Shown piece after piece: positions 2,521 through 61,516 of a DNA stretch of 64,000 nt. Within the stretch, counting starts at the first letter, position 1, and each line of letters starts with the position of its first letter. This DNA is from Patescibacteria group bacterium (GTDB lineage Bacteria > Patescibacteriota > Minisyncoccia > Moranbacterales > UBA1568): the NCBI GenBank assembly GCA_038078615.1, contig JBBTWT010000007.1:1060-65059 (forward strand), in the 5' to 3' direction. The notes beneath the pieces were generated by a model. The model saw only the letters and a list, made by a program, of their open reading frames with translations. It had not been told where the DNA came from and ran no database searches. The position numbers and the translations under genes were made by a program.

Positions 2521-2700
2521 GACGGCACAACAGGAGGGAAGAGTGAAAAACAATCGCTAACAAACTAACTGACAAACATATGTCGGACAAGAAGACGGGG
2601 CAGGGAGAAGAGGGAGCAGCAGAGTCCGTCTGCGACGCTTTGCCAGCCCGCAAAGCTGCGCTTAATGCTGCTGACGGGCGCAGCGATGCGAGTGGACGCA
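2521..2700 (+). repeat. Leader-ATG-two-hairpin cassette, copy A (homologous to 41748-41935)
   Basis: Colinear with copy B. Shared parts are ACGGCA(G)CAAC, an A/C-rich tract containing AAAAACAATCG, an ATG (2580), then a core (2631-2690) with about 55 of 65 identities by hand count. Hairpins are at 2637-2656 and 2656-2683. Confidence 0.75.
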
Positions 2701-2858
2701 CGCGCTGCGAGATCTGGACGCGCGTGATGGGGTATCATCGTCCGGTGTCGCACTTCAATATCGGCAAGAAGTCCGAGCACTACTCGCGCAAGCATTTCCA
2801 GGAGACCGTCGCCGCCAATCACGAGTTCTGCGAGAAGTACCGGCTCGTGACGTGCTGA
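2580..2858 (+). CDS. nrdD: Stand-alone NrdD C-terminal glycyl-radical fragment (92-aa ORF)
   Basis: The C-terminal half reads RCEIWTRVMGYHRPVSHFNIGKKSEHYSRKHF, the class III RNR glycyl-radical signature (RVxGY...NxGKK). Its frame differs from the upstream nrdD ORF. The ATG is preceded by an A/C-rich tract like other starts in this window. Confidence 0.7.
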   Translation: MSDKKTGQGEEGAAESVCDALPARKAALNAADGRSDASGRTRCEIWTRVMGYHRPVSHFNIGKKSEHYSRKHFQETVAANHEFCEKYRLVTC

Positions 2859-5383: not shown

Positions 5384-5483
5384 ACCTGATTTTTCTTGCG
5401 TACGCGGAGAAACCTCCCCAGTCCCTCTGTACACATTTTTCCACGACCGTGGAGAAATGTGTACAAATATAAAATGACGCGTG

Positions 5484-9642: not shown

Positions 9643-11697
9643 ATGCCGGTATTCCGTCTCCAATCACCCTATCAGCCGGCTGGCGATCAGCCTCAGGCGA
9701 TCGTGTCTCTGGTGCGCGGATTGCGCGAGGGCAAGCGTTCCCAGACATTGCTCGGCGTGACCGGATCCGGCAAGACCTTCACGATGGCCAATGTCATCGC
9801 GCAGATGGATAAGCCGGCGCTCGTCATCGCGCACAACAAGACGCTCGCGGCGCAGCTCGCGCAGGAATATCAGGAATTTTTTCCCGATCACGCCGTGCAT
9901 TATTTCGTCTCGTATTACGACTACTATCAGCCGGAAGCCTATATGCCGACGACGGATACGTATATCGAGAAAGACGCGCAGATCAATGCGGAGATCGATC
10001 GTCTGCGGCACGCCTCCACGCAGTCGCTCCTGACGCGCCGCGACGTGATCATCGTCGCTTCCGTCTCGTGCATCTACGGGTTGGGCAGTCCTGCGGAATA
10101 TGAGAAGGAGAATATGCGTCTCGAGACCGGTATGCCGTGCTCGCGGACGGAGCTCCTCCACCGGCTCGTATCCATCTTCTTCGAGCGTACCAATGCCGAT
10201 CTGTCTCCCGGGCAATTCCGGAGCATCGGCAACCGCATCGAGATCATGCCGATCTCGGAGAAATTCATCTACCTGCTGGAAATTATCGGCGGCCGACTGG
10301 GGAGCATCACGAAGATCGATCCGGTATCGCAGAAGATCCTCGATACTCCGACGACTATCTTTCTTTTTCCGACGAAGCACTTCATCACGGACAAGGATCA
10401 GAAAGATTTCGCGATACAGTCCATCCGTCTCGAGCTCGCAGCACGATTGCAGGAGCTCGAGGCCGAGGGGAAAATTCTCGAGGTGGAGCGGCTCAAGCGG
10501 CGCACGAATTATGACCTGGCGATGATGCAGGAGATCGGCTATTGCAGCGGCATCGAGAACTATTCACGCCATCTGTCCGGCAAGGAGCCTGGCGAGCCGC
10601 CGGAGACGCTGCTCTCATATTTCCCCCGCCGTCGTAAAAGCTCTGGCGGGCAGGCGCACACTGATGTTTGGGAGCCTGATTTTCTAACAATTATAGATGA
10701 GTCGCACGTGACTTTGCCGCAGCTCCGCGGGATGTACGCCGGCGATCAGGCGCGCAAGAAAACGCTCGTCGAGTACGGCTTCCGCCTGCCCTCCGCGCTC
10801 GATAACCGGCCGCTCCGCTCCGAGGAATTCATGGAGCGGGTAGGACAGATGGTGTTCACGTCCGCGACGCCGGCGGACTATGAACGCGAGACAAGCGGGC
10901 AGATCGTGGAACAGGTGATCCGTCCGACCGGTCTCATCGACCCGGAAGTGGCGGTGCTGCCGATTCATGAGACAAAAGAGTATCCTGGACAAATTCAGGA
11001 TTTTATCGCGCAGACTGAAGAAGAGGTGAAAAAAGGCGGGCGCGTGATCGCGACGACCTTGACAAAAAAGATGGCGGAGGACTTGAGTACGTATCTGAAA
11101 GAAAAGAACATCAAGTCCGAATACCTGCACAGCGATATCAAGACCATCGATCGCATCAAGATCCTGACCCGGTTCCGCAAGGGAGAGTTCGATTGTCTGG
11201 TGGGAGTGAATCTGCTCCGTGAGGGACTCGATCTTCCCGAGGTATCGTTCATCGGCATTCTCGATGCGGACAAGGAGGGATTTCTCCGATCGGAGACTTC
11301 TCTCATCCAGATCATCGGCCGGGCAGCGCGCAATGTGTCCGGCCGCGTCGTCTTGTATGCCGAACGCATTACCGGATCAATGGAGTATGCTCTCAGCGAG
11401 ACGAATCGGCGCAGGAAGCTCCAGATGGCGCACAATAAGCTGCACGGCATCACGCCGGCTACGATCAAGAAGACGATCCACGACATCACGGAAGCCTTGG
11501 AAAGCGAGCATGACAAGGCGGTGCGCGCCAACATCGGCCTGGACCGGGAGATATTCGCCAAGAACCCCGAGAAGCTCATCAGGCTGAAGGAAAAAGAGAT
11601 GCGGGAAGCGGTGAAGGCGCTGGACTTTGAAACGGCGGCGATCCTCCGCGACGAACTCGCCATACTGAGGGGAAAAACGGACAAGATGTTGGGATGA
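9643..11697 (+). CDS. uvrB: Excinuclease ABC subunit B
   Basis: GVTGSGKTFTMA, DESHVTLPQ, YGFRLPSALDNRPL, LREGLDLPEVS and the C-terminal UVR motif. Carries a 16-aa insertion at 10627-10674. Confidence 0.95.
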   Translation: MPVFRLQSPYQPAGDQPQAIVSLVRGLREGKRSQTLLGVTGSGKTFTMANVIAQMDKPALVIAHNKTLAAQLAQEYQEFFPDHAVHYFVSYYDYYQPEAYMPTTDTYIEKDAQINAEIDRLRHASTQSLLTRRDVIIVASVSCIYGLGSPAEYEKENMRLETGMPCSRTELLHRLVSIFFERTNADLSPGQFRSIGNRIEIMPISEKFIYLLEIIGGRLGSITKIDPVSQKILDTPTTIFLFPTKHFITDKDQKDFAIQSIRLELAARLQELEAEGKILEVERLKRRTNYDLAMMQEIGYCSGIENYSRHLSGKEPGEPPETLLSYFPRRRKSSGGQAHTDVWEPDFLTIIDESHVTLPQLRGMYAGDQARKKTLVEYGFRLPSALDNRPLRSEEFMERVGQMVFTSATPADYERETSGQIVEQVIRPTGLIDPEVAVLPIHETKEYPGQIQDFIAQTEEEVKKGGRVIATTLTKKMAEDLSTYLKEKNIKSEYLHSDIKTIDRIKILTRFRKGEFDCLVGVNLLREGLDLPEVSFIGILDADKEGFLRSETSLIQIIGRAARNVSGRVVLYAERITGSMEYALSETNRRRKLQMAHNKLHGITPATIKKTIHDITEALESEHDKAVRANIGLDREIFAKNPEKLIRLKEKEMREAVKALDFETAAILRDELAILRGKTDKMLG

Positions 11698-15947: not shown

Positions 15948-16646
15948 ATGACAGAGAACATCCGTGAGCGTTTTATAGTTACCGCAGACGATTACGGCAT
16001 CCGCCAGACAGCGGAGCCGATTTTGCGCTTGGCGCACGAGGGGAAGATCGATCGCGTGGCGGTGCTGATCCACTATGTCTCCGCCGAGCAGGCGGAAGCG
16101 CTCAAGGCGACGGGAGTGAAGATCGACCTGCATCTGGAACTGATCGGGCTTCTGAAAAGCGGGGAGAAGATGCATGAGAGCGTTCTCGTGCGGAGCGTCA
16201 ATTTCATATTCCGCCGTATCGCCGGGCTGGCGACCGCGAAGAAAGTCGAGCAGGAATGGAGAGACCAGATCGTGCGCTTCCGCGATATCTTCGGCCGTCT
16301 GCCCGACGGGCTCAATTCCCATGAACATCTGCACTGTTTCCCGCCGTTTTTCAGGGTGTTCACGAAACTGGCGGAAGAATACCGCATATCGTATATCCGT
16401 TTCGGGAAGAAAGGCATGCTCACCGGCCTGCATGGGGCGTTCATCGGCGAGATTCTCGCTTTCTTCTGGAAGCGGACGCATCCCGCCTATGTCAAGACGG
16501 CGCTCGCGACATCCGATTATCTCGTGAGCCTGGATTGGCTCGCGGATTTCAAGTCTTTCAGCGAACGGCTGCCCTCCGGCAGTATCGAGCTGGTCGTGCA
16601 TCTGGAGCGCGAGGAGGATTATCGGATCATACTCGAGTATTTCTGA
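15948..16646 (+). CDS. ChbG/HpnK (YdjC-like) carbohydrate deacetylase family protein
   Basis: [15 protein letters not shown] and LNSHEHLH match the YdjC-family metal-site pattern. Confidence 0.7.
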
Positions 16647-16667
16647 CGGATCTCCCGTTTTTTTGTC

Positions 16668-16696
16668 TTGATATGCCTGCCTTTCGATGGTATACT
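16668..16696 (+). promoter_or_regulatory. Promoter for the first uvrA paralog
   Basis: TTGATA (16668-16673), 17-nt spacer, TGgTATACT (16688-16696). Confidence 0.55.
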
Positions 16697-16717
16697 GCCT
16701 TTCCTATATTTTCGCAT

Positions 16718-19318
<2,601 letters not shown>

Positions 19319-20711: not shown

Positions 20712-22157
20712 ATGGAGAAACTGTGGGAGAAAATATACACGCTTGAAGCGTTTCAGAAGAAAAACGCGTTGCCGGAAGCGCCGGGAGCGTATTTTTTCCT
20801 GGACGCGGGGAAAGAGTTGCTCTATATCGGCAAGGCGACCTCGCTTCGCGATCGGGTGAAGAGCTATTTTTCGCGCGACATCGCCCTCTCTCGCGGTCCG
20901 AAAATAATGCGGATGCTCGAACAGGCGCGTTTCATCGCGTATCGGCAGACGGACTCCGTTCTCGAGGCGCTGATCCTGGAATCCAGACTGATAAAAGAAC
21001 ATCAGCCTCCATACAACACTGATGCCAAAGACGACAAGAGCTACAACCATATCGCCATCACGCAAGAAAAATTTCCGCGCGTGCTCATCGTGCGCGGCCG
21101 CGACCTCGTAAACCGACAACCGACAATTTACCCTGTGAAATCCAGCATAGCTGGTCCGCCGAAGGCGGAATTTCATAGGGCAAGCAACCGACAACAAAAA
21201 ACAAGATACAAATACATATTCGGACCGTTTCCGCACGGTATGCAGCTGCGCGAGGCGCTCAAGATCATCCGCAAGCTGTTCCCCTTCCGGGACAAATGTT
21301 TACCCGCCGAAGTCTTGACGAAGGAGGGCATGCCATCAAAAAAAAGAACAGAGCTGAAGCCGTGTTTCAACAGGCAGATCGGCTTGTGTCCCGGAGTATG
21401 CACCGGCGAGATTTCCGCACGAGAGTACGGACGCATTATCAATCACATCCGCCTGTTCTTCGAAGGGCGCAAGAGCGTGCTTGTCAGAAAGCTGGAACGC
21501 GAGATGAAGACGGCGGCGAAACAGCTGGCATTCGAGCGGGCGAGCGAGATCAAGAAGACATTGTTCGGGCTGCGGCATATCCAGGATATGGCGCTGGTGA
21601 AGGACGACCAGCAGTTAACAGTGAACAGTCAACAAAAAACAATAAGGATCGAAGCTTATGATGTCGCGCATCTGGGGGGAGACGCGAGCGTGGGAGTGAT
21701 GGTCGTTTTGAGCAATGGCCAAGCAGACAAAGAATCTTATAGAAAATTCATTCTGCGCGGCGGACACAACGGCAATGACCTGACTGCGCTCCAAGAGATC
21801 CTGGCGCGCCGTCTGAAACATACCCCGCCCGCAACGTTTCGCAAGCGAAGCGCAGCGATTCGGGCAGGCGAGTGGCCGCTGCCGGATATCATCGTGGTGG
21901 ATGGCGGAGAGCTTCAAGTGAGGATGGCCCAGCAAGCCATCCTCAACTTAGCGGTTTCACCGCTAAGTAAACTGCGTGGTGGAATTTCGGTCGTGGGCGT
22001 GGTGAAGAATGCCAAGCATCAGCCCGAGCGCCTCATCGGACCAGAGACGCTGACGAAGCGTTTCAAAAAAGAAATCCTGCTCGCCAATAGCGAAGCGCAT
22101 CGTTTCGCCATCACCTTCCACCGCAAGCGCCGAGGAAAGGAGTTTCTGAAGATGTAG
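20712..22157 (+). CDS. uvrC: Excinuclease ABC subunit C, short form
   Basis: GIY-YIG (GAYFFLDAGKELLYIGKATSLRDRVKSYF ... LESRLIKEHQPPYN), UVR domain (LEREMKTAAKQLAFERASEIKK) and RNase-H-like nuclease (IEAYDVAHLGG). It ends at FHRKRRGKEFLKM with no (HhH)2 domain. In-frame insertion at 21108-21212. Confidence 0.9.
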   Translation: MEKLWEKIYTLEAFQKKNALPEAPGAYFFLDAGKELLYIGKATSLRDRVKSYFSRDIALSRGPKIMRMLEQARFIAYRQTDSVLEALILESRLIKEHQPPYNTDAKDDKSYNHIAITQEKFPRVLIVRGRDLVNRQPTIYPVKSSIAGPPKAEFHRASNRQQKTRYKYIFGPFPHGMQLREALKIIRKLFPFRDKCLPAEVLTKEGMPSKKRTELKPCFNRQIGLCPGVCTGEISAREYGRIINHIRLFFEGRKSVLVRKLEREMKTAAKQLAFERASEIKKTLFGLRHIQDMALVKDDQQLTVNSQQKTIRIEAYDVAHLGGDASVGVMVVLSNGQADKESYRKFILRGGHNGNDLTALQEILARRLKHTPPATFRKRSAAIRAGEWPLPDIIVVDGGELQVRMAQQAILNLAVSPLSKLRGGISVVGVVKNAKHQPERLIGPETLTKRFKKEILLANSEAHRFAITFHRKRRGKEFLKM

Positions 22158-22245: not shown

Positions 22246-25044
22246 ATGCCAGAGAAAAAGCCGATGATCGAGATTCGCGGCGCGCGGGTCAACAACCTGA
22301 AGAACGTGGACGTCGATATCCCTCGTGATGCTTTGGTGGTGGTGACCGGCTTGTCCGGTTCGGGCAAATCCTCATTAGCTTTCGATACTCTTTTCGCGGA
22401 AGCGAATCGGCGCTATGTCGAGTCGCTTTCTTCGTATGCGCGCAATTTTCTCGACGGATTCGACAAGCCGGACGTCGACGCGATCCACAACCTTTCGCCC
22501 GCCATCTCCATCGACCAGAAGAGCGTGTCGAGGAGCCCGCGTTCGACGGTCGGGACGATGACGGAGATCTATGATTACCTGCGTATCCTGTTCGCCAAGC
22601 TCGGGATTCCGCATTGTCCATCGTGCGGCAAGCGTCTCACAAGAAAGAGCGTGCGCGAGATACTCGAAGAGCTCCTCCTCCTGCCCGACAAGACGCCGCT
22701 CGCATTCATCGCGTATGGCAAGGCGCTCGCCGACAAGACCGAACGCGAGGCGCTCTCACTCATCAATGCCTGGGGATACGTACGGGTCCTGTTTCACGGG
22801 GAGCTCTCGCCGATCGCCGAAGCGATAGGACGCGCGTCCGCGACGGAAATCTCGGATATCGGCGTGGTCGTCGACCGTCTCGAGATCGACCTGTCCCGTC
22901 CCGACAAGGAGCGTATCCTCGATTCGCTCCAGACCGCGTTCCGCGTCGGCCAGGGGACGCTCACGCTCCGCATCAATGGTACCGGTGAAGAACGTATCTA
23001 CAACGAGGAATACCGCTGTGAAGAATGCCATATCGGGCTGCCGGAGTTCACGCCGAGCTGCTTTTCCTTCAACAGTCCCGAGGGCGCGTGCGAGAAGTGC
23101 GCGGGCCTTGGCGTGACGCTCGAATTCGATCCGGAACTCGTCATCCCCAACAAGAACCTGTCGCTCGCCGAAGGGGCGATCCGTCCGTGGAGCAAGATGA
23201 ACAGCGACCGCCACAGCGGCAACGGGCCGATGCAGTGGCTGCGCGACGCGAGCCGGCGGCACAAATTCTCGCTCGATATTCCGGTGAAGAAGCTCGCCGG
23301 TAAGCATTTCTCCCTCATACTGCACGGGGAAGGCGGCACGGAGCAGGATGCCTTTCCCGGCATCATCGCGCTTCTGGAGAAGAAATACCGCGAGACGAAA
23401 TCGGATCATCTGCGTACGGACATCGAGGCGTATATGCTGACCAAGCTCTGCCCTCTCTGCGAGGGGAAGCGCCTGAAGGCGGCATCGCTCGCCGTGAAGA
23501 TAGAGGGACTTTCTATCGATGATCTCGTGAAGCAGAGCGTCGATATGTTCCTGGAGAGGATGAAGCCGCTGCGGGAAAAATGCCTGAAGACGGGCGAGAA
23601 GAAGATGATCGATCCCTTGTTCCGCGAGATGGAGATGCGGCTCTCCGCCGTGGAAAAAGTGGGACTCGGATATCTCGAGCTCTCGCGCGGCGCCGATACG
23701 CTGTCCGGAGGAGAGGCGCAGCGTATCCGCCTGTCAGTGCAGATGAAATCTGGGCTTTCCGGCATCATCTATGTCCTCGACGAGCCGTCGATCGGGCTGC
23801 ACAGCCGCGATACGGAACGCCTGATCAACGCGCTCGAGGATCTGCGGAAAGCGAACAATTCTCTCGTGATCGTCGAGCATGACGTGGCGATCATGCGCCG
23901 GGCGGACTATATCATCGATCTGGGTCCGGGCGCCGGCAGCGAGGGCGGCGAGATCATCTTCGCGGGCACGCCGGACAAGCTGATGCGCTCGAAGCTCCTG
24001 ACCGGCGAATACCTCTCCGGCAAACGCAGCATATCCGAGAAGAAGAAGGCGCGTCGTCTGAGCGAAGAGGCGATCACTGTTTTCGGCGCGACGGAACACA
24101 ATCTGAAGAATGTCGACGTGAAGATCCCGCTCGGGATGCTCGTGGCGGTTTCCGGCGTCTCGGGATCGGGCAAATCGAGCCTGGTGCATGACATCCTGTC
24201 CCGGGCGCTGTCGAAATATTTCTATCATGCCAAGGCCGAGCCGGGCGCGCACAGGAAGATCGAGGGGATCTCGAATATAGACAAGGTGATCGCCGTGACG
24301 CAGGATCCGATCGGACGGACGCCGCGTTCGAACGCGGCGACGTATACCGGCATCTTCAGCCTGATCCGCGACCTGTTCGCGGCGACGACGGAAGCCGAGC
24401 GCGAGAAATATTCCGCCAGTCATTTCAGCTTCAATATGCGCGGCGGCCGCTGCGAGGCATGCCAGGGCGGCGGATTGAAGAAGATCGAGATGTATCTCCT
24501 GCCGGATGTCTACGTACCGTGCGAAGTCTGTCAGGGGACGAGATACAACGCGAAGACGCTCTCGATCGAATATCGCGGAATGAATATCGCGGCCGTGCTC
24601 CGCATGACGGTCACGGAAGCGCGCCGCTTCTTCCTGGATCAGCCGATGATCGAAGAGAAGCTGCGCGTGCTCGAGGAAGTCGGTCTCGGATATCTGGTAC
24701 TCGGACAGAGCGCGACCAACCTCTCCGGAGGAGAGGCGCAGCGTATCAAGCTCGCGACAGAACTGGCACGAAAATCGACCGGCAAGACGCTCTATATCCT
24801 CGACGAGCCGACGATCGGCCTGCATTTCGAGGATGTGCGGCGCCTGCTCGAGGTGCTCGAAGCGCTGACGGACAAAGGCAACAGCGTGCTCGTCGTGGAG
24901 CACAATCTCGATGTCATCCGCTCGGCGGATTGGGTGCTGGAGCTCGGTCCGGACGGCGGCGCCAAGGGCGGGGAGCTCATCTTCTCCGGACCGCCGGACA
25001 AATTGAAAAACTGCAAGCGTTCATTCACGGCGAAATATCTATAA
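22246..25044 (+). CDS. uvrA: Excinuclease ABC subunit A (full-length type)
   Basis: [20 protein letters not shown] twice, [11 protein letters not shown], Zn modules, and an insertion-domain-length segment between CAGLG and CPLCEGKRL. Confidence 0.95.
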
Positions 25045-25084
25045 TTTTTAAAAGAGGGTTTTTTGTCTTAGAATCGAAAGCATC

Positions 25085-25149
25085 CCGGAAGTTTTCAGAT
25101 GAACCGTGCCGAAGAGGTTTCGCCACATGGTTCCCTAAAAAACTTCCGG
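25085..25149. repeat. Rod-like hairpin element, short copy (core shared with 47539-47655)
   Basis: CCGGAAGTTTT ... AAAACTTCCGG 11-bp outer stem. The inner 39-40 nt AGATGAACCGTGCCGAAGAGGTTTCGCCACATGGTTCCCT differs at 2 positions from 47561-47600. Confidence 0.85.
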
Positions 25150-30907: not shown

Positions 30908-30916
30908 TGTTACAAT
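30908..30916 (+). promoter_or_regulatory. Extended -10 promoter for pilM
   Basis: TGtTACAAT, followed by an A-rich leader GAGAAAAACAAAACAGAAAG before ATG 30942. Confidence 0.5.
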
Positions 30917-36247: not shown

Positions 36248-36283
36248 ACCTTACTTTTTATGCAATTGCATAAAAAGTAAGGT
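36248..36283. repeat. Perfect AT-rich palindrome, copy 1 of 2
   Basis: ac-CTTACTTTTTATGCAATTGCATAAAAAGTAAG-gt. The identical 32-nt core recurs at 61482-61513. Confidence 0.95.
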
Positions 36284-36375: not shown

Positions 36376-37188
36376 ATGAAAAAGAAATCTTTGACTATTG
36401 TTTCGTGGAACGTGAACGGTATCCGGGCCGTGCACCGCAAAGGCGTGTTCGAGCCATTCGTGGCGAAATATCGACCGGATATCCTGTGTCTCCAGGAAAC
36501 CAAGGCGCTCCAAGGCCAGGCGGAAATCGATCTGTCGGACTACGAGGAGTACTGGAACTCCGCGGACAAGAAAGGCTATTCCGGCACGGCGATATTCACG
36601 AAACACAAGCCGCTTGCCGTTTTCAACGGATTGCCGGCGGATATCGTGAAAAAATTCCGTCTGACGGGTGACGGCTACGGTGATCCGAATGCCGAAGGTC
36701 GGGTGATCGCGGCGGAATATGAGAATTTTTTCGTCGTGACGGTGTACACGCCCAATGCCAAACCGGATCTCTCCCGTCTCGCGCTCCGTCACAAGCACTG
36801 GGATCCAGCCTTTCTCGCGTACTGCACACGATTGGAAAAAAAGAAACCGGTGATTTTTTGCGGCGATCTCAATGTCGCTCACATGCCAGACGATCTCGCC
36901 CATCCGAAGCAGAACGAGGGCGAGCACGGATACACCCGCGAAGAACGCGAGGGATTTCAGAACTTCATCGATGCGGGATTCGTCGATACGTTCCGTCAGT
37001 TCCATCAGGGAAGCGGTCATTATAGCTGGTGGTCGCACTTCGCGAACGCCCGGGCGCGCAACGTCGGCTGGCGCATCGACTATTTCCTCGTGAGCGGCAA
37101 GCTGAAATCCAAGGTCGAAGATGCGTTCATTCTCCCGGAAGTACTCGGCTCCGATCATTGTCCCGTGGGAATCAAGCTCTCATTGTAA
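36376..37188 (+). CDS. xth: Exodeoxyribonuclease III
   Basis: SWNVNGIRA, LCLQETK, GDLNVAH and GSDHCPV motifs. Confidence 0.9.
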   Translation: MKKKSLTIVSWNVNGIRAVHRKGVFEPFVAKYRPDILCLQETKALQGQAEIDLSDYEEYWNSADKKGYSGTAIFTKHKPLAVFNGLPADIVKKFRLTGDGYGDPNAEGRVIAAEYENFFVVTVYTPNAKPDLSRLALRHKHWDPAFLAYCTRLEKKKPVIFCGDLNVAHMPDDLAHPKQNEGEHGYTREEREGFQNFIDAGFVDTFRQFHQGSGHYSWWSHFANARARNVGWRIDYFLVSGKLKSKVEDAFILPEVLGSDHCPVGIKLSL

Positions 37189-37192
37189 GAAA

Positions 37193-38488
37193 ATGGAAAA
37201 TATGAAGAATACACCGCTGGCGGAGAGGATGCGGCCGAAGATGATTGCGGATTTTCTCGGTCAGGAGAAGGTGTTCGGCGAGGGGGCATTTCTCCGTGAG
37301 GCGGTAAAGCGAGGCGATGTTCCGTCGCTCATCTTCTGGGGGCCGCCGGGCAGCGGCAAGACGACGCTCGCACGGCTGCTTTCGAACGAATTGTCGGCAC
37401 AGTTCATCTCGCTCTCGGCGGTGACGAGCGGCAAGCGCGACCTGCAGGAAGTGATCGAAATCGCGAAAACGAACCGCGAAAACAACAAGCAGACCATTCT
37501 CTTCCTCGATGAGATCCATCGCTGGAACAAGGCGCAGCAGGACGCACTTTTGCCGTTCGTGGAGTCCGGCGTCCTGACACTCATCGGGGCGACGACGGAG
37601 AATCCGAGCTTCGAGGTGAATGCCGCTCTCCTCTCGCGGACGCGGGTGCTCGTGCTCGACAAGCACAGTGAGGAAACATTGATACGGCTGCTCACGCAGG
37701 CGCTCGCGACGGATGAGACGCTGCAGCGGCAGAAAATACGGGCGACGGATGCGGCGCTCGCGTTCATCGCGGCCGTGTCCGGAGGAGATGCGCGCCAAGC
37801 ATTCAATATTGTGGAAGCGTGTGCGTCTCAGGTGAAGAACATCACGCCGGAAATAGTGGAAACAATCGTCGCGCGATCGCACATCCTCTACGACAAGGGC
37901 GGCGAACAGCATTACAATATCATCTCCGCGCTCCATAAATCGATGCGCGGCGGGGATGCGGACGCGGCGCTTTACTGGCTGGGGCGGATGCTCGAGGCAG
38001 GGGAAGACCCGCTCTATGTGGCGCGGCGATTGGTTCGGTTCGCATCGGAGGACGTGGGACTGGCGAATTCATTCGCATTGCCGCAAGCGGTCGCGGCGTT
38101 CCAAGCGTGCCAGATGCTCGGGATGCCGGAGTGCGAGGTGCATCTGGCGCAGGCGGTCGTCTATCTTGCCAAGTCCAAGAAATCCAACGCGCTCTACGTC
38201 GCTTATGGCAAAGTGAAGGAAGACGTGAAGAACTTTCCCAACGAACCGGTGCCGCTTTATCTGCGCAACCTGCCTCGACTGCCAGGAGGCAAGGCGGGCG
38301 CCCCGACCAAATTGATGAAGGAGCTTGAGTACGGCAAGGGCTATAAATACACGCTTGCCCGAAACACTTCGCGAAGCGATGTGGGCGGGCCTGATTTTAA
38401 GACGAAAGAAGAAGCGGAACAAGACTATCTGCCCGCGAAGCTCAAGGGGAGGAAATATATCGAGATCAAGTCGTCCTTGGAGAAATGA
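37193..38488 (+). CDS. rarA: Replication-associated recombination protein A (AAA+)
   Basis: LAERMRP, GPPGSGKTTLA, LFLDEIHRWNKAQQD and APTKLMKELEYGKGYKY. 10-aa insertion at 38270-38299. Confidence 0.9.
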   Translation: MENMKNTPLAERMRPKMIADFLGQEKVFGEGAFLREAVKRGDVPSLIFWGPPGSGKTTLARLLSNELSAQFISLSAVTSGKRDLQEVIEIAKTNRENNKQTILFLDEIHRWNKAQQDALLPFVESGVLTLIGATTENPSFEVNAALLSRTRVLVLDKHSEETLIRLLTQALATDETLQRQKIRATDAALAFIAAVSGGDARQAFNIVEACASQVKNITPEIVETIVARSHILYDKGGEQHYNIISALHKSMRGGDADAALYWLGRMLEAGEDPLYVARRLVRFASEDVGLANSFALPQAVAAFQACQMLGMPECEVHLAQAVVYLAKSKKSNALYVAYGKVKEDVKNFPNEPVPLYLRNLPRLPGGKAGAPTKLMKELEYGKGYKYTLARNTSRSDVGGPDFKTKEEAEQDYLPAKLKGRKYIEIKSSLEK

Positions 38489-40201: not shown

Positions 40202-40636
40202 ATGTTCATCGGAGAATATTCGCACACGATCGATCCCAAGAAGCGCCTGGCGCTTCCTTCGAAGTTCCGCGGCGAACTGGGGAGCAAAGTCGTCGTGACG
40301 CGAGGACTCGACCACTGCCTGTTCGTGTACCCGATGAAAGTCTGGGGCGACCTTGCGACGAAACTGGGCACGCTGCCCGTCGGCGAATCGGGCACGCGCA
40401 GCTTCATCCGCATCATGCTCGCGGGTGCGACGGACGTGGAACTCGACAGCCAGGGACGCGTGCTTCTGCCGGAATATCTGAAGAGCGACGGCGGCCTGAA
40501 GAAAGACGTGACGATCGTGGGACTTTTCAACCGCTTGGAAATCTGGGACACGGCGAAGTGGAAGCGGTACAAAGCGCAGGCGGAGAAGCAGACCGGCAAG
40601 ATCGCGGAGGAATTGGGGAAACTGGGAGTGTACTAA
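40202..40636 (+). CDS. mraZ: Transcriptional regulator MraZ
   Basis: MFIGEY..IDPKKRLALPSKFR and a second SpoVT/AbrB-like half with DSQGRVLLP. First gene of the dcw cluster. Confidence 0.9.
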   Translation: MFIGEYSHTIDPKKRLALPSKFRGELGSKVVVTRGLDHCLFVYPMKVWGDLATKLGTLPVGESGTRSFIRIMLAGATDVELDSQGRVLLPEYLKSDGGLKKDVTIVGLFNRLEIWDTAKWKRYKAQAEKQTGKIAEELGKLGVY

Positions 40637-40637
40637 G

Positions 40638-40780
40638 GAATTTTCAATTTTTAGTTTTCAATTTTCAAACAATGATACGATGATCCAATTTTCGAAAGCT
40701 TTCCGGTTCCGCAAGGCACATTTGAAAATTAGGTCATTGGAAATTCATTAGAAATTGAAAATTGAAAATTGGAAATTGAC
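40638..40780. repeat. Inverted arrays of heptanucleotide repeats, (TTTTCAA)n and (GAAAATT)n, between mraZ and rsmH
   Basis: Left arm 40641-40668: TTTTCAA TTTTTAG TTTTCAA TTTTCAA. Right arm 40750-40780: GAAATT GAAAATT GAAAATT GGAAATT GAC. The arms are mutually complementary. Confidence 0.9.
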
Positions 40781-41747: not shown

Positions 41748-41935
41748 ACGGCAGCAACCGCCGCCAGATCGACAAAAACAAAAACAAAAAACAATCGTAT
41801 GCAGGAACGACGCCATCACGTCAGAATGATGTCTCCCGGGGGACACAGGCACGGTCTCGAGCCCGTTCGCAACGCTTTGCCAGCCCGAAAAGCTACGCTT
41901 AACGTTGCTGGCGGGCGTAGCAATGCGGGCAGGCT
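41748..41935 (+). repeat. Leader-ATG-two-hairpin cassette, copy B (homologous to 2521-2700)
   Basis: ACGGCAGCAAC, (ACAAAA)n...AAAAACAATCG, ATG 41799, then hairpins 41874-41893 and 41893-41920. Compensatory differences relative to copy A. Confidence 0.75.
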
Positions 41936-42218
41936 CGCGGGCTCGGTGCACGTGTTCGTGCTGATTGTTTTTCTGATCGCGTTCGTGGCGGGCGGAGGTT
42001 ATCTGTATTCCGTCAATCGTAGCGCGGTGCAGGGATATCATATGCGGACGCTGGAGAAGGAGATCGACAAACTCAAGCAGAATAACGCGGAGCTCAGGAT
42101 CGCCGAGGCGGATCTGCGGTCGCTCTATCGCATCGAGACCGCGGAAGAAGAGCTCGGCATGCAGAAGCTCGACACTATCATCTATCTCGAGGAACATGGA
42201 CCGATAGCTCTGCGGTAG
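41799..42218 (+). CDS. ftsL: Cell division protein FtsL-like (N-terminus encoded by the cassette)
   Basis: TM segment VFVLIVFLIAFVAGGGYLY followed by coiled-coil LEKEIDKLKQNNAELRIAEADL. Lies between rsmH and ftsI. The true start could be later (ATG 41826/41829 or GTG 41947). Confidence 0.6.
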   Translation: MQERRHHVRMMSPGGHRHGLEPVRNALPARKATLNVAGGRSNAGRLAGSVHVFVLIVFLIAFVAGGGYLYSVNRSAVQGYHMRTLEKEIDKLKQNNAELRIAEADLRSLYRIETAEEELGMQKLDTIIYLEEHGPIALR

Positions 42219-42225
42219 GAAGAGG

Positions 42226-44028
42226 ATGATTCGTCTGTGTCAGGATACGCGTATGAGGAACGGAAGCCATGTCCGGCCGAGAAAACACAAGATGGAGGGT
42301 TTGTTGTCGGACGGAGAAGGACGTATCCGAGGGATCATCCTGATCGTTTTTTGTGTCGGTGCGCTTCTGGCGTTGCGGCTGTATTTCATCCAGGTGATGA
42401 GCCACGACAAATGGGTGGCGATCGCCGAAGATCAGCACAATGCGTTTCAGGAACTTGCCGCCGACCGGGGGGAGATATATATGCGCGACGGCGACGGCAG
42501 ATACCCTCTTGCTGTCAACCGCGAATACAGCCTGGCCTATGTCGTGCCGAGGGATGTCGTTGAAAAGGATCGTGTCACCCTGGAACTCTCGCGTATCCTC
42601 GGGATGGACGCCGTCGTGATCCGGACGAAGCTCGACATACCGGATGATCCGTTCGAAATCATCAAGAAACGTCTGACGGACGATGAAGTGAGGCAGATCA
42701 AAGAGATGGATTTGAAAGGTGTTGCACTGTTTCCCGAAAAATATCGTTACTATCCGGCGGGTGAACTCGCTTCGCAGGTCGTCGGTTTCGCGAGTCTTGG
42801 CGAGATAGGCGGGGCTGGCGGATACGGCATAGAGGCGTTCCAGAATGGCCGTCTGCGTGGCGAGGGCGGCACTGTCTCGCAGGAGAAAGACGCCGGCGGC
42901 CGCTGGATACCGCTGTCCGATCGCGCGTTGGTGTCGCCGAAGAACGGTGATAGCATGGTGCTGACGCTCGATCGCGTGATCCAGTATGAGACGGAAAAAA
43001 TATTGCGGGAAGCGATGGAACGTCATAGCGCCGATCGGGCGACGGCGATCGTGATGGATCCGCAGACGGGAGCGATCCTCGCGATGGCGTCGCAGCCGCA
43101 ATTCGATCCGAACAGGTATTCCGAAATAGAGGATTATTCCGTGTTTCTCAATCCCGCGGTCAGTCTCACCTACGAACCCGGATCGATCATGAAGCCGATC
43201 ACGATGGCGATCGGGATCGAGAATGGCAAAGTCTCCCCGGACACGGAATACGTGGATACCGGCGTGGTGCGGGAATCCGGCTACGCCATCCGCAATTCCG
43301 AGGACAAGGTCTATGGCAGGAGCACGATGACCAGGGTGCTCGATGAGTCGATCAATACCGGAGTGATTTTCGTCGAGAAGCAAGTCGGCAACCAGACGTT
43401 CAGGGACTATTTCACGCGTTTCGGTTTCGGTAAAAAAACGGACGTGGCCTTGCCTGCCGAACTTGCGGGCAACGTGCGCAATTTGGACAATCCCCGCACG
43501 AATCTCGAATTTTTCACCGCGGCATTCGGTCAGGGTGTCGCCGTGACGCCGCTCCAGATGATCACGGCGTACGCGGTACTCGCGAACGGCGGAGTGCTTT
43601 ACAAGCCGCAGATCATCGAGCGTATCATCCATAGCGACGGCAGCGAGGAGAAAACGGCGCCGCAGGAAGTGCGGCGCATCCTGAGCGAGGAAACCAGCCG
43701 CACGATAAGCGGGATGCTCCGGAGCGTCGTGGTGAACGGGCATGGCAAGCGCGCGGACGTCCCGGGATATCTGGTCGGCGGCAAGACCGGAACGGCGCAG
43801 GTGGCGAAAAGCGATGGCAGAGGATACGAGGAGGGACAGAGCATCGGTTCCTTCGTCGGATACGCTCCCATCGATGACCCGCGGTTCGTTGTCCTGGTGA
43901 AAATCGACAATCCGAAGGATGTGCAGTGGGCGGAATCGAGCGCCGCCCCGACCTTTGGCCAGATCATGAGGTTTCTGCTAGAGTACGCCAGGATAAGACC
44001 GACCGAGCAGGCGACCGCGAACAAATGA
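42226..44028 (+). CDS. ftsI: Penicillin-binding protein, class B transpeptidase of the dcw cluster
   Basis: N-terminal TM, SxxK (GSIMKP) and KTGT (GGKTGTAQV). Lies downstream of ftsL. Confidence 0.85.
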   Translation: MIRLCQDTRMRNGSHVRPRKHKMEGLLSDGEGRIRGIILIVFCVGALLALRLYFIQVMSHDKWVAIAEDQHNAFQELAADRGEIYMRDGDGRYPLAVNREYSLAYVVPRDVVEKDRVTLELSRILGMDAVVIRTKLDIPDDPFEIIKKRLTDDEVRQIKEMDLKGVALFPEKYRYYPAGELASQVVGFASLGEIGGAGGYGIEAFQNGRLRGEGGTVSQEKDAGGRWIPLSDRALVSPKNGDSMVLTLDRVIQYETEKILREAMERHSADRATAIVMDPQTGAILAMASQPQFDPNRYSEIEDYSVFLNPAVSLTYEPGSIMKPITMAIGIENGKVSPDTEYVDTGVVRESGYAIRNSEDKVYGRSTMTRVLDESINTGVIFVEKQVGNQTFRDYFTRFGFGKKTDVALPAELAGNVRNLDNPRTNLEFFTAAFGQGVAVTPLQMITAYAVLANGGVLYKPQIIERIIHSDGSEEKTAPQEVRRILSEETSRTISGMLRSVVVNGHGKRADVPGYLVGGKTGTAQVAKSDGRGYEEGQSIGSFVGYAPIDDPRFVVLVKIDNPKDVQWAESSAAPTFGQIMRFLLEYARIRPTEQATANK

Positions 44029-47534: not shown

Positions 47535-47538
47535 TTAT

Positions 47539-47655
47539 AGAAAAGATTTCAAAAGTTTTTAGATGAACCGCGCCGAAGCGGTTTCGCCACATGGTTCCCT
47601 GCCCGAAGTGCTACATCGTGGCAGGCGGGCCTAAAAAACTTTTGAAATCTTTTCT
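47539..47655. repeat. Rod-like hairpin (MITE-like) element, long copy
   Basis: 23/24-bp terminal inverted repeats: AGAAAAGATTTCAAAAGTTTTTAG with CTAAAAAACTTTTGAAATCTTTTCT. The inner core is shared with 25098-25136. Carries an extra hairpin CTGCC..GGCAG. Confidence 0.9.
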
Positions 47656-47690
47656 GGAAGCTGTCTTTATCTTTAGTGACCTATCTCTTT

Positions 47691-48668
47691 ATGAAACTAT
47701 TAGTTACAGGCGGAGCCGGTTTCATCGGTTCCAACTTCATACATCATATCCTTACGGCATATCCGGAATATCAGGTGACCAATCTGGACGCCTTGACGTA
47801 CGCGGGGAATCTGGAAAATCTGAAAATATGGGAACATGATGCGCGCCACCGTTTCGTGAAGGGCGGCGTGACAGACAAGGAGCTCGTGGATGGTCTCGTC
47901 GCGGCGTGCGATATCGTGGTGCATTTCGCGGCGGAGTCCCACGTAGATCGCTCGATTATGGATCCGAGCGCTTTCGTGGATACCAATATCAGAGGAACGT
48001 ACGTGTTGCTTGAAGCGGCGCGCAAACACGGCAGGCGTTTCCATCATATCTCGACGGACGAGGTATTCGGTGCGCTCGGTCCGGATGATGCACCGTTTGA
48101 CGAGGAGACAGCGTATGACCCGCGTAGTCCCTACAGCGCGTCGAAAGCGGCGTCGGACCATCTGGCGCGCGCGTATTTCCATACCTATGGTCTGCCGGTC
48201 ACGATTTCCAACTGCTCCAACAATTATGGGCCATACCATCTGCCGGAGAAACTGATTCCGCTTGCAATCACGAATCTTATCGAAGGAAAGAAAGTGCCGG
48301 TCTATGGCGATGGTCTGCAGGTGCGTGACTGGCTCTACGTTGAGGATCATTGTAGGGCGATCGATCTCATCATCCATCAGGGGCAACTCGGCGAGACCTA
48401 CTGCGTCGGCGGGAACGGTGAGCGGGAGAATACCTGGATCGTGAAAAAACTGCTGGCAATGCTCGGCAAAGATGAGAGAATGATCGAATATGTGAAGGAT
48501 CGCCCCGGCCACGACCGTCGCTATGCCATCAATTTTTCAAAAATTCAGCAGGAGCTCGGCTGGCAGCCAACCGTGACTTTGGAAGAGGGTTTGCAAAAAA
48601 CGGTGAAGTGGTTCCAAGACAACAAATCCTGGTGGAAGAATGCCCGCCAGAAACGCTATCACGCCTAG
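47691..48668 (+). CDS. rfbB: dTDP-glucose 4,6-dehydratase
   Basis: VTGGAGFIGSNF, YSASKAASDHL, and the NYGPYHLPEKLIP motif. Confidence 0.95.
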   Translation: MKLLVTGGAGFIGSNFIHHILTAYPEYQVTNLDALTYAGNLENLKIWEHDARHRFVKGGVTDKELVDGLVAACDIVVHFAAESHVDRSIMDPSAFVDTNIRGTYVLLEAARKHGRRFHHISTDEVFGALGPDDAPFDEETAYDPRSPYSASKAASDHLARAYFHTYGLPVTISNCSNNYGPYHLPEKLIPLAITNLIEGKKVPVYGDGLQVRDWLYVEDHCRAIDLIIHQGQLGETYCVGGNGERENTWIVKKLLAMLGKDERMIEYVKDRPGHDRRYAINFSKIQQELGWQPTVTLEEGLQKTVKWFQDNKSWWKNARQKRYHA

Positions 48669-48711
48669 CGGGATTGCGGGCTGGTGAAATCCGGAGCGTA
48701 CCAGCAGTATT

Positions 48712-50149: not shown

Positions 50150-50187
50150 CCTACACATCTATGTGCGACCGCACAGAGATGTGTAGG
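50150..50187. repeat. Palindromic repeat, copy 2 of 3
   Basis: CCTACACATCT-at-GTGCG-ac-CGCAC-ag-AGATGTGTAGG, ending 10 nt upstream of ATG 50198. Confidence 0.9.
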
Positions 50188-50806: not shown

Positions 50807-50827
50807 AAATATATGTTATTCTTGTGC

Positions 50828-50863
50828 CTACACATCTATGTGCGGTCGCATATAGATGTGTAG
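50828..50863. repeat. Palindromic repeat, copy 3 of 3
   Basis: CTACACATCTATGTGCGGTCGCATATAGATGTGTAG, starting 22 nt after the stop of the PaaX-like gene. Confidence 0.9.
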
Positions 50864-61478: not shown

Positions 61479-61516
61479 AGTCTTACTTTTTATGCAATTG
61501 CATAAAAAGTAAGACT
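61479..61516. repeat. Perfect AT-rich palindrome, copy 2 of 2
   Basis: agt-CTTACTTTTTATGCAATTGCATAAAAAGTAAG-act. The flanks differ from copy 1 but are still self-complementary. Confidence 0.95.

Follow-up and report, generated by a model that had tools for sequence, protein, structure and literature searches.

The 64,000-nucleotide stretch analysed here (the window; positions 1,060 to 65,059 of contig JBBTWT010000007.1, assembly GCA_038078615.1, from a Patescibacteria group bacterium) carries two similar GC-rich sequences inside unrelated genes: copy A (2625..2696, forward strand), in the gene for a stand-alone glycyl-radical tail of NrdD, and copy B (41862..41933, forward strand), in ftsL. 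The evidence presented below indicates, with a probability of about 0.8, that the two copies are members of a dispersed family of small, mobile, GC-rich palindromic DNA repeats, akin to repetitive extragenic palindromic (REP) sequences and to Rickettsia palindromic elements (RPE), and translated through together with the genes in which they lie. The contig originates from Hainich groundwater, and its nearest homologues are found in Moranbacteria.

In a repeat scan of the window, the pair appears as a direct repeat of 85 nt with 79% identity (2622-2706 and 41859-41943, family D8). Each copy shares its frame with the downstream open reading frame (ORF), and the encoded 24-residue peptides are similar, in agreement with an earlier reading of the window (hereafter the original prediction) that had reported a repeated core with similar in-frame peptides. 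The compensatory double change that it described (GCTGCGC..GCGCAGC in copy A, GCTACGC..GCGTAGC in copy B) is likewise present. These are the only near-full copies in the window, and a 33-nt degenerate core pattern matches them alone, with no match in 100 shuffled sequences. The true insert measures 72 nt, over which the two copies agree at 57 positions; the 15 differences, read directly from the codons, are mostly non-synonymous.

The limits of the insert are set by orthologous loci in which the site is empty or differently filled. Copy A is a doubled palindromic element that starts 45 nt 3' of the ATG and contributes codons 16-39 (SVCDALPARKAALNAADGRSDASG) of the glycyl-radical-tail ORF (2580-2858). 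At the corresponding position of locus L002 the DNA alignment shows GCAGAG directly followed by CGCACG, exactly 72 nt fewer, and the protein encoded there (P0001, 68 aa), which is the closest homologue of the window protein, equals it minus exactly the 24 residues of copy A. At the same site, L003 contains a single 36-nt unit of the outer type described below, corresponding to a 12-residue insert (P0002 lineage). Among 120 homologues, the N-terminal peptide ranges from 3 to 30 aa and a related insert is restricted to the P0002 lineage. Copy B, also doubled, starts 63 nt 3' of the ATG, is codon-aligned like copy A, and supplies codons 22-45 (PVRNALPARKATLNVAGGRSNAGR) of ftsL, in the variable cytoplasmic tail that is N-terminal to the membrane helix. 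Orthologous ftsL loci display inserts of 0 nt (L008), 36 nt (L006) and 72 nt (L005 and the window), and the lengths of FtsL N-terminal tails fall into clusters of 19-23, 30-35 and 45 aa that correspond to zero, one and two units. Copy B shares 65 of 72 positions with a copy in the rluD-like gene of another organism, against 57 with copy A and 54 with its own L005 orthologue. The closer match to a foreign copy identifies the two window copies as independent members of a family, rather than as duplicates of each other.

The building block of this family is a palindromic, GC-rich unit of about 36 nt (36-38 nt; consensus CCAGCCCGCAAAGCTACG / CTTAGCGTTGCTGGCGGG) with a hairpin of 6+3+4 bp stems and a TTA loop (GCCCGC-AA-AGC-T-ACGC-TTA-GCGT-T-GCT-G-GCGGGC). 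Folded as DNA, the consensus yields -14.7 kcal/mol (z = -3.4). Each 72-mer can be divided into four 18-nt segments (L1 L2 R2 R1), the inner two (L2+R2) forming one unit and the outer two (L1+R1) another. The inner unit of copy A (2643..2678, forward strand) matches the consensus at 31 of 36 positions and scores 60.8 bits under a covariance model (2640-2681), and that of copy B (41880..41915, forward strand) matches at 34 of 36 positions and scores 65.4 bits (41877-41918). The joined outer halves are also recognizable, matching at 21/36 positions in the more diverged outer unit of copy A (2625-2642 plus 2679-2696, forward strand) and at 25/36 in copy B (p<5e-5 in both cases). Together with the single unit of L003, which is orthologous to the outer unit of the window at the nrdD-tail site, and with a further nested copy in L065, these matches show that, in copies A and B alike, one unit has been inserted into the middle of a second.

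What is conserved in this family is the nucleotide sequence and the hairpin, and not the peptide. Across 22 copies, 90.4% of the cells are paired and six pairs change on both sides (one of them is AU in 10 copies, GC in five and UA in two; another is AU in 13 and CG in five). The resulting covariation score of 0.264 compares with 0.142 in shuffled alignments, none of which reaches it in 500 trials, and with at most 0.078 in slid-structure controls; G-U pairs also occur in the stems. The double change between copies A and B is thus one instance of covariation in the family, and the L2 position involved co-varies, under the nested model, with R2 as well as R1. The original prediction had proposed that further copies with additional compensatory pairs would argue for a structured element, and such copies were obtained with the covariance model and scans; its suggestion of a structured nucleic acid that is translated incidentally is essentially right. 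Its fold of two adjacent hairpins holds in that the core does form hairpins, but this is just one of several forms available to a doubled element: copies A and B have different minimum-energy folds, with weak z-scores of -1.0 and -2.0. The unit has a GC content of 67%, against 40-56% for the loci in which it resides (63% in L053), and in L071 a GC-rich cluster stands within an AT-rich spacer. No Rfam 15 family matches the elements in the window, in its two sub-regions or at 16 related loci, at gathering or E<=10 thresholds.

A covariance model built from the family units (model R1) and run on the window and its relatives reveals three further, diverged units in the window. In rarA (ORF 37121-38488), a diverged single unit (38351..38392, forward strand; E=3e-5) adds about 12 residues (TLARNTSRSDVG) opposite a 12-residue gap in all nine RarA homologues aligned; when folded, it takes the hairpin shape of the family, the changes in its stems being compensatory. 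In uvrC (ORF 20712-22157), a diverged unit with an enlarged loop lies in reverse orientation (21821..21871, reverse strand; E=2.4e-4), is read in the PPAT...(A)IRAG frame, and corresponds to a gap of 11+1 residues in the solved UvrC structure 3c65. Near the 3' end of rfbB (ORF 47676-48668), a 42-nt unit detected equally on both strands (48642..48683; E=0.0075) aligns with a gap of 42 nt in each of the two orthologues (L006 and L008) and with one of 14 residues in PDB 8du1. This unit preserves the frame of the gene but is itself read in a stop-containing frame, and its TAG (48666-48668) terminates the ORF, leaving the native tail of rfbB, sixteen codons (KSGAYQQYYEEQYKKR) up to the stop, in frame a little further downstream. 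Such a tail is naturally missing from some RfbB proteins, and the arrangement suggests that either the insertion is recent and the truncation tolerated, or there is read-through or removal. The five copies of the window are all intragenic. A second insert in RarA (approximately 38268-38297) adds the ten residues LPRLPGGKAG, which are absent from the nine homologues and from E. coli RarA; its DNA, CTGCCGCGCCTGCCAGGAGGCAAGGCGGGC, is similar to a truncated unit and falls under the threshold of the covariance model.

Among close relatives, rsmH of L008 (6044-6082; also in L009 and L010) contains a 39-nt unit in reverse orientation that is absent from the window, L005 and L006. The same L008 has an empty ftsL site, and close relatives thus bear units at different sites. 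All inserts for which an empty site is known are multiples of three (72, 72, 36, 42 and 39 nt), and their host ORFs stay open, with the exception of the C-terminal truncation of rfbB.

Outside this lineage, a scan with a 20-nt pattern (GCCAGCCCGMAAAGCTRCGC) had hits at 49 loci in genomes and 73 in metagenomes. About 95 of these 122 were dropped after extension as fortuitous hits to GC-rich genomes of Proteobacteria and the like, whereas some 25 contain the full palindrome (GCCAGCCCGCAAAGCTACGCTTAGCGTTGCTGGCGGGC) with flanks that represent about a dozen unrelated contexts. The named hosts are all members of the Candidate Phyla Radiation (CPR): Saccharibacteria (L011, L050), Portnoybacteria (L037) and Moraniibacteriota (L042), to which several unclassified metagenome contigs are added. 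The units are mostly found inside long ORFs, in both orientations, including genes for an FtsK-like protein (807 aa), a U32 peptidase-like protein (496 aa), an EamA-like membrane protein, a secreted FG-GAP protein, and TsaD-like and RluD-like proteins. A few are intergenic (L071, L065, L074), in sites such as AT-rich spacers or, for L074, directly after a tRNA. Four of the six reading frames of the unit are free of stops (PARKATLSVAGG, QPAKLRLALLAG, PASNAKRSFAGW and PPATLSVALRAG) and all four are used in real hosts, the hydrophobic frame in membrane or signal segments and the hydrophilic one in tails and linkers; the remaining two contain stops. More restrictive or different searches yielded no additional members: a strict 22-nt pattern had no match in species-representative genomes, a profile of the doubled 52-residue peptide gave 219 word candidates among proteins, none at E<=10, and of two patterns run on viral contigs one had no match and the other a single half-match in a phage ORF, consistent with chance. 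In the TsaD-like ORF of L045, an unrelated peptide repeat (PKLSLGAPKLSLG) is inserted twice, in addition to the hairpin unit.

The element was initially delimited in a different manner. The original prediction described a colinear cassette of about 185 nt from which unrelated genes would obtain their leader, start codon and N-terminal tag, and there is some basis for this proposal in the window: both copies lie 45-63 nt from a start codon, after A/C-rich leaders that share the 11-mer AAAAACAATCG, and the upstream segments align slightly better than shuffled sequences in global alignment (score 9 versus -3 +/- 4.7, p ~0.008). Outside the 72 nt, however, the segments align weakly, and poorly with MAFFT, the signal stemming from A/C-rich composition, the shared 11-mer and ACGGCA(G)CAAC; the motif AAACAATCG shows no excess in the window when a single mismatch is tolerated (18 occurrences against an expectation of 20.5). 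Orthologues that lack the 72 nt share the leader, the ATG and the first 15-21 codons with the window genes. The A/C-rich leader of the nrdD-tail gene (2521..2579, forward strand) is kept in L002 without an insert, and the rsmH-ftsL spacer with the ftsL leader (41748..41798, forward strand) is kept in L005, L006 and the empty-site L008. Leaders and start codons are consequently native host-gene sequence that lies outside the repeat, and the 185 nt do not constitute a unit. The boundaries of the inserts lie within ORFs, 45 and 63 nt downstream of the conserved ATGs, which does not fit a portable translation-initiation region. Nor does an N-terminal tag account for the three other units of the window or for most units elsewhere, which are placed mid-protein or near C-termini (rarA, uvrC, rfbB, rsmH, ftsK-like, rluD-like), while the use of four reading frames in both orientations leaves no single conserved peptide. 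The A/C-rich tracts said to precede other start codons are confirmed for nrdD at 352, but not for pilM, whose start at 30915 lacks one: among 45 starts examined, only those at 352, 2580 and 41799 have long A/C-rich, G-poor leaders (30-40 nt upstream), the remainder being AT-rich upstream with no obvious Shine-Dalgarno sequence. A portable cassette is hence very improbable. Even less credit can be given to a one-off duplication or gene conversion between two loci, or to a chance resemblance between GC-rich hairpins, with no family behind it. Only two high-identity copies are indeed present in the 64-kb window, but the failure of shuffled sequences to match the core, the near-identical units in about a dozen further contexts and the greater proximity of copy B to a foreign copy than to copy A all speak against such an event.

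Two further alternatives concern what the repeated units do. One is that they are structured RNAs of benefit to the host, with the mRNA hairpin serving translational pausing, mRNA stabilization or termination, and are not selfish DNA. The covariation and the G-U pairs of the hairpin would be expected on this account, some intergenic copies immediately follow a tRNA (L074) or precede terminator-like T-runs (L102, L037), and REPs are known to act in these ways (PMC3733652). Such a function is difficult to reconcile, however, with the finding of units on either strand with respect to the host gene and anywhere along coding sequences, with their polymorphic presence between close orthologues, with the decay of older copies and with the lack of a matching Rfam family. 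We therefore regard it as unlikely for the family as a whole, while individual copies may have undergone secondary exaptation. The other alternative is that the peptide itself (..ALPARKAxLNxAxGRS..) is selected, for instance as a short binding motif or flexible linker spread by recombination. The window copies and several others do share the PARKATLSVAGG-like frame, which gives a hydrophilic peptide rich in Pro, Gly and Ala, but other hosts read the same DNA as QPAKLRLALLAG, PASNAKRSFAGW or PPATLSVALRAG, the differences between copies A and B are largely non-synonymous, the peptides of orthologous ftsL copies diverge freely, and some copies are intergenic. Selection on the peptide is accordingly a very doubtful explanation.

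In the preferred reading, that of a mobile palindromic DNA repeat, units are gained and lost as precise blocks whose presence differs among close relatives. Persisting intragenic copies have lengths that are multiples of three and occupy one of the four stop-free frames, except in rfbB, and they are located in tolerant protein regions, such as N- and C-terminal tails, linkers and loops. The units would be translated through as 12-24 extra residues, as judged from the sequence, and these residues would subsequently decay neutrally at the peptide level; the elements would in this sense be selfish and REP/RPE-like, rather than host regulatory or protein modules. The hairpin might be recognized in single-stranded DNA by a trans-acting enzyme, and a transposase of the HUH/Y1 class, similar to REP-associated tyrosine transposases (RAYT) or to those of IS200/IS605, is a conceivable candidate, because the hairpin, the lack of a target-site duplication (none was seen at the nrdD-tail, rfbB and rsmH insert junctions) and the precise presence/absence pattern would all fit such an enzyme. 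Template switching at hairpins could conceivably provide an alternative route of spread.

Several observations weigh against this interpretation or restrict it. Pfam searches detect no transposase or other mobilizing gene in 40 ORFs of the window or in the six ORFs beside the intergenic L071 cluster, and no consistent target motif or flank homology accompanies the inserts, so that the mechanism of mobility is deduced indirectly; a 10-mer common to the 3' end of copy A and the flank of the nrdD-tail site is not reproduced across five inserts. Translation through the element is likewise deduced from constraints on frame and length and from conserved start codons, and one copy, that of rfbB, is in a stop-containing frame. 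The apparent conservation of the 5' half of the unit arises partly by construction, since the pattern search fixed 20 nt in that half, and copy numbers for the source genome are based on 64 kb. Lastly, near-identity across CPR phyla is unlike simple vertical decay and demands either a conserved recognition machinery or horizontal spread. These elements can be combined in a more specific proposal, which we put forward tentatively and consider rather unlikely as a whole: an actively mobile hairpin, nearly unchanged across CPR phyla and moved by a conserved recognition system (an HUH-type enzyme or transposase-free, hairpin-templated copying), would preferentially insert at its own hairpin apex and act as a recurrent source of linker, tail and membrane-segment residues in essential proteins encoded by minimal genomes. 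A preference for the apex would explain the nested doubles. The in-frame TAG that precedes an intact tail in rfbB suggests a more remote variant, in which processes at the level of RNA or of translation would remove or bypass some copies.

The closest known parallels are found in other bacterial palindromic repeats. RPE have been described as sequences of approximately 100-150 bp in ten Rickettsia-specific families, each encoding a conserved peptide (Ogata et al., 2000, as summarised in PMC10969869). As in RPE, the CPR element is a dispersed palindromic repeat (five window loci and about a dozen contexts, with a covariation-supported hairpin), lies in frame in tolerant regions of unrelated housekeeping genes, where it is apparently read through as extra peptide, has no transposase of its own, and resides in small-genome bacterial hosts that depend on other cells. 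Unlike RPE-1 to RPE-10, from which size and host distinguish it on the account given in PMC10969869, the CPR unit measures 36 nt (72 when nested) and is found in CPR bacteria; also unlike RPE, it is read in four frames and both orientations, and is nearly unchanged across several CPR phyla. REPs with GTAG or CGTC tags include intragenic members, some of which add 20-30 residues to ORFs, notably in the DNA repair and replication genes uvrA, uvrB and uvrD, and for the GTAG class, RAYT transposases have been proposed (Di Nocera et al., 2013; PMC3733652). The CPR unit shares with tagged REPs a GC-rich hairpin of 20-40 nt, an occurrence as singles, pairs and clusters, and G-T pairs in the stem, and with intragenic REPs a presence in repair and replication hosts, here uvrC, rarA and the nrdD tail; as REPs do, it can donate a TAG stop to a flanking ORF, here rfbB. 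It lacks, however, the unpaired terminal tag of GTAG and CGTC REPs, the alignments of 15-22 units showing a 5' tail (G)CCAG and a variable 3' flank: the apical stem of the CPR unit contains CTAC and GT(A/T)G, and CGTC is confined to L1, an outer segment, in copy A and L003. Membership in the tagged REP classes was rejected on the position of the tag. Furthermore, CPR pairs are nested (L1 L2 R2 R1), and not head-to-head or tail-to-tail neighbours; all five window copies are intragenic, where REPs are mainly extragenic and downstream of ORFs, although intergenic CPR units do exist (L071, L065, L074); no RAYT gene is seen in the window; and CPR is not among the phyla described in PMC3733652. The assignment to either RPE or REP thus fails because the defining size and terminal GTAG/CGTC tag differ, as apparently does the sequence.

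Similarities to other small repeats are more general. [quoted passage not shown] Mobile GC clusters and coding palindromes of mitochondria, for example in Nematomorpha, are described in PMC6649704 as reaching 284 bp, with both arms reported as protein-coding; on that account they resemble the CPR element as GC-rich hairpins that invade compact genomes, coding sequence included, while keeping the frame, and differ from it in being organellar and of other sequence and size. No description of such elements in CPR or Patescibacteria was found in the literature searched. The original prediction had not recognized a known element, and this is borne out for the sequence family, for which no Rfam match and no CPR literature was found, but not for the kind of element, represented by RPE and intragenic REPs. 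The family is apparently undescribed for CPR, while the kind of element to which it belongs is already known.

The genomes of CPR/Patescibacteria are tiny and gene-dense, and a selfish hairpin repeat would hence persist in them only inside genes. For annotation, the family explains puzzling indels of 12-24 residues in the essential proteins FtsL, the NrdD tail, RarA, UvrC, RsmH, FtsK, TsaD and RluD, segments that annotators and structure predictors should treat as repeat-derived. Because their presence differs among close relatives, the units could serve as strain-level markers, and the finding of near-identical units in distant CPR phyla points to horizontal spread or to a shared mobilizing machinery. 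On a broader level, the phenomenon of selfish DNA in protein-coding genes, known from Rickettsia, is extended to a second, unrelated group with reduced genomes.

The genes that host the two doubled copies are conserved independently of the repeat. The nrdD-tail gene (2580..2858, forward strand) encodes a stand-alone glycyl-radical tail protein of 92 aa, residues 41-73 of which match positions 531-562 of the 562-position Pfam NRDD family, and the body of the enzyme is encoded by the ORF at 352-2469 (705 aa; NRDD positions 2-530), which ends past the Zn-ribbon. NrdD is therefore spread over two genes, separated by a palindrome and a leader, with nrdG next downstream. The ATG at 2580 is native, as more than 1000 stand-alone tail homologues (55-83 aa), distributed in Moran-, Magasanik- and Gracilibacteria, have the same MS/MT start, and their number identifies the split of NrdD as a conserved trait of these lineages that was not made by the repeat. 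An intron, an intein or a bypass was considered for this split and rejected, separate genes for the glycyl-radical tail being the norm in these lineages. The ftsL gene (41799..42218, forward strand), identified by NCBIfam FtsL matches, is part of a dcw cluster with neighbours assigned by Pfam (mraZ at 40202, rsmH at 40755 and ftsI at 42226), and its ATG is also native, the N-terminus being conserved in orthologues. The uvrC gene is located between two uvrA-like paralogues (16535-19318 and 22246-25044), and uvrB lies at 9643-11697; in this dense excision-repair neighbourhood, the repeat families D1-D3 are internal ABC-ATPase duplications of the uvrA-like paralogues.

Other repeats are present in the window and at related loci. 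The nrdD-tail leaders of L002 (approximately 30-140) and L003 (approximately 9880-10000) contain a different inverted-repeat insert, CACCCAGTGAAAT...ATTTCACAGGGCAAG, which is absent from the window and is a second small mobile palindrome at this locus. A second palindromic family, CCTACACATCTATGTGCGACCGCACAGAGATGTGTAG, with CTAC...GTAG ends and the look of a REP or a terminator hairpin, has copies at 2470-2506, 5428-5464, 50150-50186 and 50827-50863, one of them immediately 3' of the nrdD stop, and is also found at the start of L002. A 64-nt direct repeat with 84% identity (25073-25136 and 47537-47600) lies just upstream of, or overlaps, the starts of the ORFs at 25099 and 47676 (rfbB); it could represent a promoter or leader common to both, or a further small repeat. 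Finally, a perfect 32-nt AT-rich palindrome, CTTACTTTTTATGCAATTGCATAAAAAGTAAG, occurs as two identical intergenic copies at 36250-36281 and 61482-61513.

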